64,000 nt of DNA from a virus (Duplodnaviria; Caudoviricetes). The position numbers and the translations under genes are program-made. Under the pieces are notes generated by a model that was not told where the DNA came from, did no database searches, and saw nothing but the letters and a program-made list of their open reading frames with translations. Shown one piece after another: positions 45,888 to 53,098 of this stretch (position 1 is the stretch's first letter; every line of letters starts with the position of its first letter). The stretch covers positions 1,693 through 65,692 of the IMG/VR virus record IMGVR_UViG_2904541872_000002. The stretch is one strand, 5' to 3'.

Positions 45888-46123
45888 GCCAGTTCGGGCT
45901 CCGGTGCAGGGGTGAAGGCGCCGTCGTTCGCCGGCGCGAGGGATGCGAAGTGGGCAGCGCAGCCAGCCAGGCTGCAGCGCTCGACCGCGCGGTAGGCCGC
46001 GATGCCCGCAGCCGCTTCGGCGTTGAGCTGGCCGGCCTCCTGCAGGCGGGTCTCCGACCAGGCGATGGCGTGCAGGCGGCGCTGGGCGCCGAGCGCGACC
46101 GAGGCCACGTAGCGCAGATTCAT
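45884..46123 (-). CDS. Small hypothetical protein
   Basis: 79 aa with ATGA overlaps on both sides. Confidence 0.55.
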   Translation of the reverse strand: MNLRYVASVALGAQRRLHAIAWSETRLQEAGQLNAEAAAGIAAYRAVERCSLAGCAAHFASLAPANDGAFTPAPEPELA

Positions 46124-47073
46124 GCTGGTTCTCCTTGACGTTGCTCGACCACGCGGCGGACGCGGGCCGTGTACTGCGCGAAGGTCTCGCGAGTGGCGCT
46201 CAGGTCATGCTCGTCCCAACGGCCCAGGCCGAGCTCCTCGCCCTTCGCTTCGATGGTGGTGCGCGAGTCGTCCCAGGGCTTCTGGGGCATGCCGACGCCG
46301 GCGGCGATCGCCGCGGCTTCGCCGAGCTGCCGGCGCACGATGCCCAGCAGGTAGTTGAAGCCCTTCGGCGGCGTGCTCTTGGCGCAGATCTCGGCCGCGG
46401 CCTCGAAGGTCTCGACCGGCACGCCCTTGGCGATCAGCGCGAGCAGCTCCGGGTTCGACGGGCTGACGTCCGCCACCTTCTTCGCCTTGATGGCGCGGCA
46501 GACCTCTCCCGCTTTCGTCGGGCTTTGCCCGCCAACCCCCACCGACGCGGCCGTAGATCCGGGCGGGGGGTTTCTTTCTTCCAATCCGGTACTGGTTCCG
46601 GTTCCGGTTCCGGTGTCGTCTCTCCCGGCGTCGATCCGGGTGTCGTCCTCTTGGCGTCCGACGTCTGTCCCATGGGACATCCCCGCCCTTTCCGCGTCCT
46701 TCCGCTGGCGGTACTCGCGCTTCCGCAGGCGCTCCGTTTCGCGCGCCGCCAGCATCTCGAGAACTCGCTTCGTGACTGTGTCGTGATAGAGGCGGCCGTC
46801 CTCGGCAGCCCACCAGCCGCGCATCAGCCTGGCCCGCACCTTCACGAAAGTCTTCATGGGCATGCCGATGCGAACGGCGATCAGCTCGTCTTCGCTCGGC
46901 AGCGAGCCGCAGGGTTCCTGGCGCCAGGCTGTGACCCAGAGCATCAGCAGCCACGGGCGCACGTCCGCCGGCGCGAGCGCCCAGGTGTCTGATTGCTCGA
47001 TGCGCTCGTGGTCCAGCTCGAAGCGCCAGCCCTTCGCGCGCGTGTCTGCGGGGTATGGAACAGGTCTCGTCAC
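46120..47073 (-). CDS. Replication initiator, YdaU/DUF1376-like
   Basis: GTG 47073; LLMLWVTAWRQEPCGSLPSEDELIA, DGRLYHD; GTGTGT linker; C-terminal helical domain. Confidence 0.8.
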   Translation of the reverse strand: MTRPVPYPADTRAKGWRFELDHERIEQSDTWALAPADVRPWLLMLWVTAWRQEPCGSLPSEDELIAVRIGMPMKTFVKVRARLMRGWWAAEDGRLYHDTVTKRVLEMLAARETERLRKREYRQRKDAERAGMSHGTDVGRQEDDTRIDAGRDDTGTGTGTSTGLEERNPPPGSTAASVGVGGQSPTKAGEVCRAIKAKKVADVSPSNPELLALIAKGVPVETFEAAAEICAKSTPPKGFNYLLGIVRRQLGEAAAIAAGVGMPQKPWDDSRTTIEAKGEELGLGRWDEHDLSATRETFAQYTARVRRVVEQRQGEPA

Positions 47074-47074
47074 G

Positions 47075-47938
47075 TCAGTCCCCGCAGAAGCACGCCAGGG
47101 CTTCCTGGTCGTCCTCGAACATGTCCACCTGATCGGCCGCGTACTGCGCGATCTCTGCGTAGCTCGGGCCGTCCTTGGTGAAGCGGGCACCTCGGCCAGT
47201 GGCTCCAGGGATCAGGGAGCCGTCCTCGGCGCGCACCCACCAGGTGATGGAATAGCGGCCCGCGCGAGCAATGGACAGGCGCTGCGCCGGCGGCTTGTTG
47301 AAGCAGTAGATGCAGTTGCCCTCAAGCGTGCGCCCGTTGTGCGTCACGAGTTCGAGGTCGAAGGGTTGCGACTTCCAGAACGCTCCCACCTCTTGCACGC
47401 TCACGCCGGCGTCGGCAAGGGGCATGCACATCGTCTCGTCCTTGGTCTCGGTGCTGGTGCCGCGCGCGCGAATCTTGGCGACGCGCCGCTGCTCGTCGGC
47501 CCGGATGCCAATGAGCTGGTCCCACTCTGGCCACGCATAGAACGCGCGCAGGTATCGGTGCATGGTGCGGATCTTCAGTTCGCTGGTGCAGAACCGGCTG
47601 ACGGGGTTCGGCAAGAACTTCCGGCGGAGAATCAAGGCCGTGAAGGGCTCGCCCTCCCGCGCCGCCCATCTCGGATCGGTGTACGACCGGAACATGCGGT
47701 CGTCCTCGCCCAGGTACTCCAGCCACACGATGCGCACGTCCCACTCGTAGGAGCACCGGGCCACGAACTGCAACGTCTCTTCGGCCTCGAGGCCAGTATT
47801 CGCAAAGCACACGACCAGCCAGCGCGCGATGTCCTCGCGCGTGTTCGCCTGCAGCACGCGCCACAGCATGTAGGCGCTGGTGCGCCCGCCGCTGAAGCTC
47901 AGGCAGGTGGGGCCGGTCAGCTTGAAGGGGTCGCGCAT
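47075..47938 (-). CDS. PP-loop (PAPS reductase/DndC-like) protein with Cys motifs
   Basis: ATG 47938; LSFSGGRTS, FANTGLE, RFCTSELK, IGIRADE, GNCIYC, CFCGD. Confidence 0.85.
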   Translation of the reverse strand: MRDPFKLTGPTCLSFSGGRTSAYMLWRVLQANTREDIARWLVVCFANTGLEAEETLQFVARCSYEWDVRIVWLEYLGEDDRMFRSYTDPRWAAREGEPFTALILRRKFLPNPVSRFCTSELKIRTMHRYLRAFYAWPEWDQLIGIRADEQRRVAKIRARGTSTETKDETMCMPLADAGVSVQEVGAFWKSQPFDLELVTHNGRTLEGNCIYCFNKPPAQRLSIARAGRYSITWWVRAEDGSLIPGATGRGARFTKDGPSYAEIAQYAADQVDMFEDDQEALACFCGD

Positions 47939-48192
47939 CAGGTCGCGCCCTCCTGAACCAGAACGGTTTCGATGTCCACGCCGTGGTGGCTCGCCTGAAG
48001 CGTCAGCACGCCGCCGAAGCGCTCGTGCAAGTTGGCGGCGATGTCCTCCTGGAAGCCTTTCTTGTGAAGAGCGCACGCCGTCTTGATGTGCTCGACGAAG
48101 ATTCGCTTCCGGGTCTCGATCTCCAGCCTGTAGATGATCGACTCGCCGTTGTTGGGGCAGACCGCAGCAAAGGTGTAGCGATAGACGTTCAA
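47938..48192 (-). CDS. QueF-like small T-fold protein
   Basis: 84 aa; F.AVCP, FVEHI, FQEDIA, HHGVDIET. Confidence 0.65.
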   Translation of the reverse strand: MNVYRYTFAAVCPNNGESIIYRLEIETRKRIFVEHIKTACALHKKGFQEDIAANLHERFGGVLTLQASHHGVDIETVLVQEGAT

Positions 48193-48938
48193 AGCAGTAC
48201 TCCTTGCGACGGCGGCGGCTCGTCAGGAACCATGAAGGTCCAGCGAGCCGGTGCGTTCTGGGACTCGATCCGCGCACGCATGACCTGCGCACGGGCCTCT
48301 TTTGTGGGCGGCGGGTAGGTGCCGCGCCATTTCACGTCTTTGCCGATGTTCTGGCCGATGTTGGTGCTGTCGGCGCTTGCGAACGGCAAGCGCGTGAAGA
48401 CCTCCGGGTTCAGCATGCGCAGCCCGTGCAATTTGCACAGCGGGCGCCCCTCGTCGTCGCAGACCACGCGCAGAGCACGCGCCATCTGCCCCCACCAGGC
48501 GGCCGTGCCAACCGTAGCGAATTCGCCGGAGCTGCCGATGCAGACCCGTGGCCATCCCGCGGCAAGCCGCTCGAGCCGGCCCAGGCTCTCGTGCATATGC
48601 CAGACCGGTGCGCCAAACCAACGGGGCAGTGGCCATTCGGAAAGCAGCGCGTCGTTCGCCGCCTCGTCACCGTCGATCACGTCCGGGATGACCGCGAAAT
48701 CGCAGTGCGGAATCAGCTTGCACTGCTCTGCCCAGGCGTAGTAGGTGCTCCAGTCCTGCACGGGCCGGCCCTGCTTCCACGCGGTGAAGGCGCCGTTGTC
48801 GATCGCCAGCGACTGGCACACCTGCGCCGCGACACCCAGTTGCCCGGGGTGCGCGAAACTGACGAAGGCATGCCCGCAAGCAACGGCCGCCACCGCCGCT
48901 GTGTCCGGTGTGATGGGAAGTCCGTGGTAATGGATCAC
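48189..48938 (-). CDS. TGT/DpdA-like base-exchange TIM-barrel protein
   Basis: GTG 48938; IDNGAF, VIPDVIDG, PVWH, IGSSG, LHGLRML, SADST. Confidence 0.7.
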   Translation of the reverse strand: MIHYHGLPITPDTAAVAAVACGHAFVSFAHPGQLGVAAQVCQSLAIDNGAFTAWKQGRPVQDWSTYYAWAEQCKLIPHCDFAVIPDVIDGDEAANDALLSEWPLPRWFGAPVWHMHESLGRLERLAAGWPRVCIGSSGEFATVGTAAWWGQMARALRVVCDDEGRPLCKLHGLRMLNPEVFTRLPFASADSTNIGQNIGKDVKWRGTYPPPTKEARAQVMRARIESQNAPARWTFMVPDEPPPSQGVLL

Positions 48939-49453
48939 GCATCCACCCCCAGGTACTCGCGCCACGGCACGATACGGCCGTCGACCTTGAACCCCCAGCC
49001 CTGCGAGTCGCCCCAGGTGAAGAACAGCGTGTAGGCCCCGTGCTCCGACACCTCGGTGATGCGATGGCAAACGCTGGGGGCGATCGCCTGCGTGAAGCCG
49101 CGCACGCGCAGCCGCGCGCCGCGGTATTCCTCGCGACGCTCCTCGAGGTAGCCGCCACGCAAGATGATCGAGCGCGCCAGCCACGGGTGGTTGTGCTCGT
49201 GGTCGTCGTCATCCGGGCGCGCGATGTGGTGCACGCGGATGCTCGGCAGCCAGGCCCAGCGCGCCTGCACCCGGCCGCCCTCCTCGTTCTTGCCGTAGGC
49301 GTTGAACAGCCACCAGCGGTCCATGTAGAGGTCATCGCTGTTGCGGCCGGAGATCGGCGTGTACGGTGTGCGCTGCGCGCGGCGGATCAGGTAGTCGGCG
49401 ACCGGGCGGCGCGAGACGATGAAGGCGACAAAGCGCCATAGTGCTTCCTTCAT
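48935..49453 (-). CDS. Cupin-like protein
   Basis: RVHHI...DDDDHEHNHPW...IILRGGYLE...CHRI. Confidence 0.7.
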   Translation of the reverse strand: MKEALWRFVAFIVSRRPVADYLIRRAQRTPYTPISGRNSDDLYMDRWWLFNAYGKNEEGGRVQARWAWLPSIRVHHIARPDDDDHEHNHPWLARSIILRGGYLEERREEYRGARLRVRGFTQAIAPSVCHRITEVSEHGAYTLFFTWGDSQGWGFKVDGRIVPWREYLGVDA

Positions 49454-52038: not shown

Positions 52039-52227
52039 ATGCACAACAACCCCGGGCGGGTAGCCCACCCCAAGCCGGCAGCGCCGGCCCCCATCGAGTT
52101 CAGCGAAGAGCAACTGCAGGCGTTTGACCGCGGCTATGCCGCAGCGAAAGACGCCGGCATCCTGCCGCAGCTGCAGGCCGACGCCGCGCTGCGCATGGAC
52201 CTGGCCCACCAGCGAGGTGCGGCATGA
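52039..52227 (+). CDS. Small early protein (62 aa)
   Basis: GAGGAG RBS, first gene after PL-like promoter. Confidence 0.65.
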   Translation: MHNNPGRVAHPKPAAPAPIEFSEEQLQAFDRGYAAAKDAGILPQLQADAALRMDLAHQRGAA

Positions 52228-52346
52228 AGGCGAAGCTGCAGGCCCAGCTGCTGGACATCCAGCGCCAGATCGCCGCGCTGCGGCGCCAGTACGCCGAGGC
52301 ACGCACCGCGCGCGCCATGGCTTCGTTCGGATGGTGCGCAGCATGA
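52224..52346 (+). CDS. Small coiled-coil early protein (40 aa)
   Basis: MKAKLQAQLLDIQRQIAALRRQYAEAR..., ATGA overlaps on both sides. Confidence 0.5.
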   Translation: MKAKLQAQLLDIQRQIAALRRQYAEARTARAMASFGWCAA

Positions 52347-53098
52347 GCCGCCGCATCGACCCCGCCGTGCTCGCGGTCATCGAGCGCGCCGACACCAGCG
52401 GCAACGCGCTGCGCATCGCCGGGCAGCTCGACCGCAAGACCTACGCCGTGGTAAACGGCGTCCTCGAGGCCGCTGGCGGCCGCTGGGACCGCAAGGCCAA
52501 GGCCCACCTGTTCGGCTGCGATGCTGACGACGCCCTCGAGCAGATCCTGCTGACCGGCGAAGTGCTCACGAAGAAGACCCGGCAGCAGGAATTCGGCTTC
52601 TTCGAAACCCCGATCGAAATCGGCCGCATGGCGCTGGATGCTGCAGGCGTGCGGCCGGACATGGTGGTGCTGGAGCCTTCGGCCGGGCACGGCGCTCTCG
52701 CGCGTCTGGTCTGTGCCGCTGGCGCCAGCGTGCACTGCGTCGAAGTCCTCCCGGAGAACGCTCGCGAGCTGACCGCGCAGGGCTTCGAGGTGGAGGAAGC
52801 GGACTTCCTCGCGGCGGCGCCGGCCCCCATCTACGACCGCGTCGTGATGAACCCGCCCTTCGCGAAGCAGGCGGACATCAAGCACGTCACGCACGCGCTG
52901 AAGTTCTTGAAGCCCGGCGGCCGGCTGGTCTCGATCATGTCGAGCGGGTCGACCTTCCGCACCGATCGCCGCACCACCGAGTTCAACGACCTGATCAGTT
53001 CGCTGGGCGGCACCGTCGAGCCGCTGCCCGAAGGCGCGTTCAAGGCATCGGGCACGCTGGTGAACACGATCCTGATCACTGCGGAGGTCCCGGCATGA
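52343..53098 (+). CDS. Orphan N6-adenine DNA methyltransferase
   Basis: FFETP, VLEPSAGHGAL, VVMNPPF, LKPGGRLVSI. Confidence 0.85.
   Translation: MSRRIDPAVLAVIERADTSGNALRIAGQLDRKTYAVVNGVLEAAGGRWDRKAKAHLFGCDADDALEQILLTGEVLTKKTRQQEFGFFETPIEIGRMALDAAGVRPDMVVLEPSAGHGALARLVCAAGASVHCVEVLPENARELTAQGFEVEEADFLAAAPAPIYDRVVMNPPFAKQADIKHVTHALKFLKPGGRLVSIMSSGSTFRTDRRTTEFNDLISSLGGTVEPLPEGAFKASGTLVNTILITAEVPA

Follow-up and report, generated by a model that had tools for sequence, protein, structure and literature searches.

Between positions 47,075 and 48,938 of a 64,000-nucleotide stretch of phage DNA (the whole stretch, taken from the IMG/VR record IMGVR_UViG_2904541872_000002, is referred to below as the window), three tightly packed genes, g1, g2 and g3, raise the question of whether a temperate phage that makes no 7-deazaguanine base of its own may place such a base in its DNA, and which of the three genes would take part in the process. 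Together with their neighbours g0 and g4 they form a run of five closely packed genes on the minus strand, and all coordinates given for them are those of the whole window. An earlier note on this DNA had presented g1, g2 and g3 as a single module uniting the three folds of 7-deazaguanine biochemistry.

By carrying 7-deazaguanines in their DNA, phages weaken the action of restriction enzymes and of some CRISPR systems, and such modifications are themselves targeted by modification-dependent defences. Among the phages that encode the transglycosylase DpdA, the largest group is formed by those without the synthesis genes, and it is also the least understood one, with low levels of modification.

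Our results point to a unit of two genes rather than three. It appears likely that g1, a DpdA-family transglycosylase, and g2, a minimal T-fold protein resembling the archaeosine synthase QueF-L, constitute a 7-deazaguanine unit that leaves g3 outside. The overall reading that we favour, with modest confidence, is that of a two-gene salvage cassette for 7-deazaguanine modification of DNA, in which g2 acts on the nitrile of 7-cyano-7-deazaguanine (preQ0).

g1 Is a DpdA-Family Transglycosylase

The g1 product is matched by PHROG 887 ('queuine tRNA-ribosyltransferase') with an E-value of 6e-72 and, by tblastn, shares 54% identity with proteins of the phages BTP1 and SPN3UB and 35–39% with those of 7-11, SE131 and MED16. 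All of these phages belong to the DpdA-only group (Hutinet et al. 2019; for MED16, PMC8306585), and dADG, which carries an amide in place of the nitrile, amounts to 0.02% of G in the virion DNA of phage 7-11 and to 0.13% of G in that of MED16 (PMC6884629, PMC8306585). Searches with g1 in Pfam (including the TGT family PF01702), NCBIfam, the PDB (by phmmer or by profile) and PADLOC returned nothing.

The AlphaFold (AF2) model of g1, built from an alignment of 27 sequences with a predicted local distance difference test score (pLDDT) of 90.3, is a TIM barrel. The four structures ranked highest by VIA all belong to the TGT superfamily: ArcTGT (1iq8, Z 15.8), Cap10 (9ntn, Z 15.8), TGT (3unt, Z 14.2) and DpdA (7ui4, Z 14.1), the last of these with 18% identity in the structural match. 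Across the 27 sequences, which reach down to 38% identity, no variation is seen at D47, D86, H114, L173 and D190 and very little at F51. Judged by order and spacing, these residues parallel Asp95, Phe99, Asp130, His181, Leu236 and Asp256 of the Salmonella DpdA, whose three active-site Asp residues serve as the general acid/base (with a Phe at +4), in base recognition and as the nucleophile (PMC10164549); in g1 the trio is represented by D47, with F51 at +4, D86 and D190. On the best reading, g1 would exchange guanine in DNA for preQ0.

g2 Is a Minimal T-Fold Protein Resembling QueF-L

The g2 product is matched by phrog_37496 and has no match in Pfam, NCBIfam or PADLOC, and a search of a protein atlas pointed only weakly to a cluster of viral QueF proteins (score 0.87). 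Its AF2 model (pLDDT 95.6) shows the beta-beta-alpha-alpha-beta-beta arrangement of a T-fold and is best matched by QueF-L (5jyx), with a Z of 13.3 and a root-mean-square deviation of 1.3 Å over 84 of 84 residues (Foldseek E 3e-4); GTP cyclohydrolase I (Z 10.3) and QueF (Z 9.9) come next. The structural offset, by which residue 1 of the model corresponds to residue 10 of the 5jyx chain, places C12 of g2 on Cys21 of QueF-L. When compared by hhalign with QueF domains encoded in five host genomes, the g2 profile gave a weak match (P 0.002, probability 13%), the register of which sets C12 on the catalytic Cys of QueF, F47-Q48-E49 on its FHE and HHGVDI on RGGLDI.

The g2 family comprises 602 clusters at 50% identity, and in 89 diverse members Y4, C12, E49 and H69 are invariant. 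The cysteine that forms the thioimide in QueF-L (Cys21) and in Bacillus subtilis QueF (Cys55) is thus present as C12 in 89 of 89 members, and the substrate-anchoring F-H-E motif is kept as F/Y47, H/Q48 and E49, the glutamate again in all 89. The NADPH motif E(S/L)K(S/A)hK(Y/F/W) is not found in g2, the consensus of the 89 members being VExIxxA without conserved lysines, and we have ruled out g2 as an NADPH-dependent nitrile reductase of the QueF type since this motif is absent.

In some relatives the g2 domain is fused, on either side, to a QueD/PTPS-like domain, and these fusions lie directly upstream of a g1 homologue. A g2 domain also forms the C-terminus of longer proteins of 266–443 amino acids with unmatched N-terminal parts (P0127, encoded at L090:6001-7332, P0073 and P0091); there is no g1 within 6 kb in locus L090.

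Linkage of g1 and g2

The association of the two genes was followed in 150 g1-seeded loci, drawn from IMG/VR, genomes, cultured phages and contigs encoding g2 fusions, and in 70 g2-seeded viral loci (L161–L230) found with a narrow g2 alignment. In the latter set g1 was present on the same strand in 70/70, in either gene order; the genes abut in 44 of these loci and lie 150–860 nucleotides apart in the other 26. The commonest gap in these 26 spaced loci, of about 232 nucleotides, leaves room for a small third gene. Starting from g1, we found g2 in 49 of the 150 loci, always on the same strand (49/49) and adjacent in all but one (48/49), again in both orders. The co-conservation of genes on which the earlier note had made its proposal depend is thereby seen for the g1–g2 part of it. 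By tblastn, g2 occurs in only three cultured phages, Pseudomonas Epa33, Rhizobium RHph_X2_30 and Microcystis Mae-JY30, and the pair is carried by these three phages and by several culturable lysogens, among them Variovorax guangxiensis DSM 27352 and Pseudomonas fluorescens PS918.

The dependence is one-sided. On the g1 tree the presence of g2 switches at least 21 times, vs. about 40 times for shuffled labels, and no active-site column distinguishes the DpdAs that have g2 from those that do not. These results suggest that g2 is an accessory that has often been acquired and lost beside a DpdA which otherwise stays the same.

Other genes recur in the vicinity of g1. DNA methylases are frequent neighbours. 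A short queuosine-precursor transporter of the YhhQ/Vut_1 type (PF02592; about 164 amino acids) stands just downstream of DpdA in 49 of the 150 g1 loci (e.g., L022:4942-5436), while the window has none; transporter and g2 occur together in 9/150 g1 loci and 2/70 g2-seeded loci. A lone QueD/PTPS-like gene (PF01242) was found in 29/150 g1 loci, almost never with g2. The loci in which this gene, of about 128 amino acids (e.g., L063:5735-6121), adjoins DpdA have neither QueE nor QueC nor FolE. Although nearly exclusive with g2 as a separate gene, the QueD-like domain is the one fused to g2 in P0054, P0056, P0063 and P0076.

g3 and the Limits of the Unit

The third gene belongs to a different lineage of phage proteins. 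It scores 26.9 bits with the Pfam family PAPS_reduct (PF01507; cut-off 22.5), matches phrog_424 (E 1e-41) and the PADLOC profile of SspD (E 5e-13), and is homologous to Nin290 (NinC) of phage lambda (28% identity, E 1e-13). The PP-loop SFSGGRTS and the four cysteines C118, C210, C213 and C284 are conserved. The QueC family PF06508 does not match g3, and PDB searches returned chance matches only. The three folds put forward in the earlier note are therefore all present (TIM barrel in g1, T-fold in g2, PAPS_reduct in g3); their common link to 7-deazaguanine stands for g1 and g2 and is not supported for g3, and the suggested kinship of g3 with QueC finds no support either.

The distribution of g3 leads to the same view. 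Of the 150 g1 loci, 13 have g3 in the vicinity, 5/49 with g2 vs. 8/101 without it, i.e., with no enrichment, and loci seeded with g3 contain g1 in only 8/82 and g2 in 2/82 cases; the NinC family is common in phages without DpdA. The syntenic sister prophage L231 encodes a g3 with 95% amino acid identity to that of the window, and g1 and g2 are exactly missing from it: L231 aligns to the window up to position 48934 and resumes at 47941, so that the stop codon of g0 overlaps the start of g3 (TGATG). In L232, a second relative, the same slot (L232:2694-5001) is occupied by an N6/N4 DNA methylase (PF01555) and two unassigned genes of 281 and 128 amino acids. The precise indel in L231 and the alternative cargo in L232 suggest that the slot is a favoured site for interchangeable DNA-modification genes, with g3 as part of the backbone. 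Together with the scattered distribution of g3, the indel indicates that the unit consists of two genes, not three.

A three-gene pathway, as it was originally conceived, would have g3 adenylate the deazaguanine in the manner of QueC or DndC. We consider it very improbable and already contradicted by the gene distribution and by the structure of L231, notwithstanding the coupling of g1, g2 and g3 in the window, the PP-loop and four conserved cysteines of g3, the side-by-side occurrence of all three genes (in a different order) in the Microcystis phage Mae-JY30 and the direct contact of g3 with g1 in a small number of further loci (e.g., L042 and L043). The coupling of g3 to the pair reflects the dense packing of phage genes. 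The best reading of g3 is that of a separate DNA- or RNA-directed PP-loop/Fe–S enzyme of the lambda NinC and SspD kind, which probably has a nucleic-acid-directed, NinC-type function of its own.

Two arrangements in other phages touch on this family. The annotation of Vibrio phage 44E38.1 shows a NinC-like PAPS-reductase domain in fusion with a Dam methyltransferase, and in phage C72C1 (L154) a single small gene separates a DNA methyltransferase from the NinC-like gene downstream of it. Both arrangements hint at DNA as the substrate of the NinC family itself.

On the other side of the pair, g0 is found nearby in 4/49 g1 loci with g2 and in 0/101 without it, and it has no match in Pfam or PADLOC. 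It was considered as a third partner and dropped, since L231 keeps g0, coupled directly to g3, without g1 and g2; g0 is probably backbone and lies outside the unit.

Organization of the Locus

The positions of the five genes are given in Table 1.

Table 1. Genes of the minus-strand run containing the g1–g2 pair (window coordinates).
Gene	Position	Strand	Length (amino acids)	Assignment
g0	48935..49453	-	172	Cupin-like phage protein, upstream neighbour; phrog_4786 'cysteine dioxygenase' (E 4e-32)
g1	48189..48938	-	249	DpdA-family (TGT-superfamily) guanine transglycosylase, phage 'DpdA-only' group
g2	47938..48192	-	84	Minimal QueF-L-like T-fold protein, obligate g1 partner
g3	47075..47938	-	287	NinC/SspD/DndC-like PP-loop protein, four conserved Cys
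g4	46120..47073	-		Replication protein (DUF1376-like), downstream neighbour; phrog_22470 (E 3e-13)

Start and stop codons overlap throughout g1, g2 and g3, in agreement with the translational coupling reported for this interval in the earlier note. The GTG start of g1 overlaps the stop of g0 (GTGA), and the TTG start of g2, preceded by AAGGAG 7 nucleotides upstream, overlaps the stop of g1 (TTGA). The ATG of g3 overlaps the stop of g2 (TGATG), which fixes the start of g3 at 47938 rather than 47941. As read from the sequence, g4 begins with a GTG at 47073, one base past the stop of g3. The motifs quoted in the earlier note were also found where expected: DNGAF, PVWH, HGL and SADST in g1, CP, VE and HHG in g2 and SGGRTS in g3. 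Elsewhere in the window, the translation of an open reading frame at 52124-53098 on the plus strand contains the motifs SAGHG and NPPF and thus resembles an N6-adenine DNA methyltransferase.

Host Supply and Proposed Mechanism

The record from which the window is taken is a provirus of 65.7 kb with a CheckV completeness of 100, and over its entire length there are zero matches to QueC, PTPS/QueD, GTP cyclohydrolase I, Radical_SAM or the Pfam TGT family. The lack of folE, queD and queE, already noticed within the window, thus extends to the whole provirus and includes queC. The closest homologues of g1 reside in genomes of Variovorax, Acidovorax, Achromobacter, Comamonas and Pseudomonas, and QueC and QueF are both encoded in 5/5 lysogens of related prophages. 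With no precursor genes in the phage and both enzymes in all five related lysogens, the dependence on a host precursor suggested in the earlier note is plausible.

In the scheme that we favour, g1 and g2 would form a salvage-type cassette of about 1 kb, inserted among the early genes of a temperate phage on the upstream side of its resident NinC-like gene. The transglycosylase g1 would swap guanine in the phage DNA for preQ0; as the phage lacks the genes to make this base, it would be supplied by the host. The invariant Cys12 of g2 would then attack the nitrile of preQ0 and form a covalent thioimide, as in QueF-L and QueF. Because g2 has no NADPH motif, the thioimide would be resolved not by hydride but by ammonia, giving the amidine (dG+), or by water, giving the amide (dADG). 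By analogy with QueF-L, which works on preQ0-tRNA, the g2 step would be best placed after DpdA has put preQ0 in the DNA, and the DNA so modified would withstand host restriction. We regard DNA as a reasonably likely target; the placement of the tailoring after the insertion is more tentative. More tentatively still, the scheme may be extended to the g2 family as a whole: its approximately 600 clusters, nearly all beside DpdA, may turn preQ0 embedded in DNA into dG+ or dADG by way of a Cys thioimide, with a 1-kb cassette and host preQ0 being sufficient and the lone QueD-like gene representing a second route.

A number of observations weigh against this reading. On the side of g1, its model also matches unrelated TIM barrels from Z 13.7 downwards, a small margin, so the fold by itself is not conclusive; Cap10, a protein-directed TGT, is matched as well as ArcTGT; and the chemistry of the DpdA subgroup consists of low-level dADG (0.02–0.13% of G) in phages without g2, so scarce that DNA is perhaps not the main target. 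On the side of g2, the position of the acid/base Asp (Cys +7) is taken by Ile (75) or Val (14) in the 89 members, for which the Asn/Asp kept at Cys +3 in 85/89 might substitute; the Pfam QueF family PF14489 was found in 0/89 members with E-values up to 1, and the PDB yielded nothing meaningful whether searched by sequence or by profile. Furthermore, the g2 proteins range from neutral to acidic, with a median net charge of −2, which does not suggest that g2 binds DNA alone, and the existence of fusions with a QueD-like enzyme of small molecules is a hint of chemistry on the free base. Finally, the supply of preQ0 is deduced from the five related lysogens.

The resemblance of g1 to Cap10, equal to that to ArcTGT, raises the possibility that the target is not DNA. 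It might be tRNA, or a deazaguanine might be added to or removed from a protein in the manner of Cap9/Cap10 of type IV CBASS, e.g., for counter-defence. Protein deazaguanylation by relatives of TGT and QueC is established (10.1101/2025.04.06.647259), and the very low DNA modification in the DpdA-only phages is in line with this possibility. We hold it to be quite improbable, because the nearest relatives of g1 are phage proteins classed as DpdA, from phages whose DNA does contain dADG, because DNA methylases are often neighbours of g1 and one of them fills the same slot in L232, and because the provirus has no CD-NTase or QueC-like partner.

The fusions to QueD-like domains and the charge of the g2 family bear on a further alternative, in which g2 would act on the free base before its insertion, either by capturing preQ0 as a thioimide, shielding it from the host QueF and handing it over to DpdA, or by converting it to some other base. 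The QueD-like domain acts on small molecules, and the family is not basic. YhhQ-type transporters do occur with g2 in the loci counted above, g2 tightly abuts DpdA in both gene orders, and the related hosts carry QueF, which would drain preQ0. A stable thioimide of QueF-L with free preQ0 has also been described, yet the same work found that QueF-L, the closest structural relative of g2, turns over only nucleic-acid-bound preQ0 (PMC5485725). The DpdAs with and without g2 are alike in their active sites, so that an altered inserted base is not indicated, and a stoichiometric carrier would be an unusual role for a T-fold enzyme. On these grounds we consider action on the free base unlikely.

The missing acid/base Asp and the constant adjacency of g2 to g1 might also fit a non-catalytic subunit, stabilising DpdA or steering it to its target, and the bacterial DpdA does require a partner, DpdB (PMC10164549). 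Such a role seems highly improbable for a protein in which Cys, Glu and His remain invariant in 89 diverse members, a pattern like that of an active site, and which two thirds of the g1 loci manage without.

Comparison with Known Systems

Of the systems described, the archaeosine synthase QueF-L of Pyrobaculum calidifontis (5jyx, 5k0p) is the nearest to g2. The whole T-fold superposes, the position of the Cys matches, neither protein has the NADPH motif and both are partners of a preQ0-inserting transglycosylase, a role that is predicted in the case of g2. From this likeness, g2 may, as QueF-L does, convert preQ0 in nucleic acid to an amidine with ammonia. The two proteins differ in that g2 is about 20 residues shorter, with an identity of 19% that sequence methods do not detect, and has Ile/Val in place of the acid/base Asp at Cys +7. 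The g2 proteins are viral and bacterial, whereas QueF-L, a decamer, is crenarchaeal, and the partner of g2 is a predicted DNA enzyme and not arcTGT.

The DpdA-only phages (Salmonella phages 7-11, BTP1, SPN3UB and SEN1 and Pantoea phage MED16; Hutinet et al. 2019) have transglycosylases 35–54% identical to g1 and, like the window phage, carry no preQ0 genes; several of them are likewise temperate phages of Proteobacteria. Unlike the window phage, 7-11, BTP1, SPN3UB, SEN1 and MED16 have no g2 according to tblastn, and the tables of Hutinet et al. 2019 give no T-fold partner for this group. Phages that encode both DpdA and QueF resemble the pair in the window in joining DpdA to one enzyme that tailors the nitrile of preQ0, if the predicted role of g2 is accepted. 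They differ in possessing a full preQ0 pathway and a QueF that keeps the NADPH motif and aligns with the bacterial QueF; according to Hutinet 2023, none of the phage QueF proteins aligned with QueF-L. The remaining gene of the interval, g3, shares with lambda NinC (Nin290) and SspD/DndC the SGGxxS PP-loop, the conserved cysteines and a location in the early or nin region of temperate phages, and no DndA/D/E or SspA/B/C partners were seen adjoining it.

In line with the view of the earlier note that the chemistry does not clearly correspond to the described Dpd pathways, this gene set matches none of them. DpdA systems as such are known; a small QueF-L-like partner of the phage DpdA was not found described in the literature that we searched. 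To this the window adds a clean g1–g2 indel relative to the sister prophage, and it removes the PP-loop gene from the unit. Present in about one third of the g1 loci, g2 is a testable candidate for the preQ0-tailoring step in the DpdA-only phages, and the g1–g2 cassette is small, portable and easily expressed. If g2 acts on DNA, the T-fold chemistry that in QueF-L serves tRNA would be extended to DNA.

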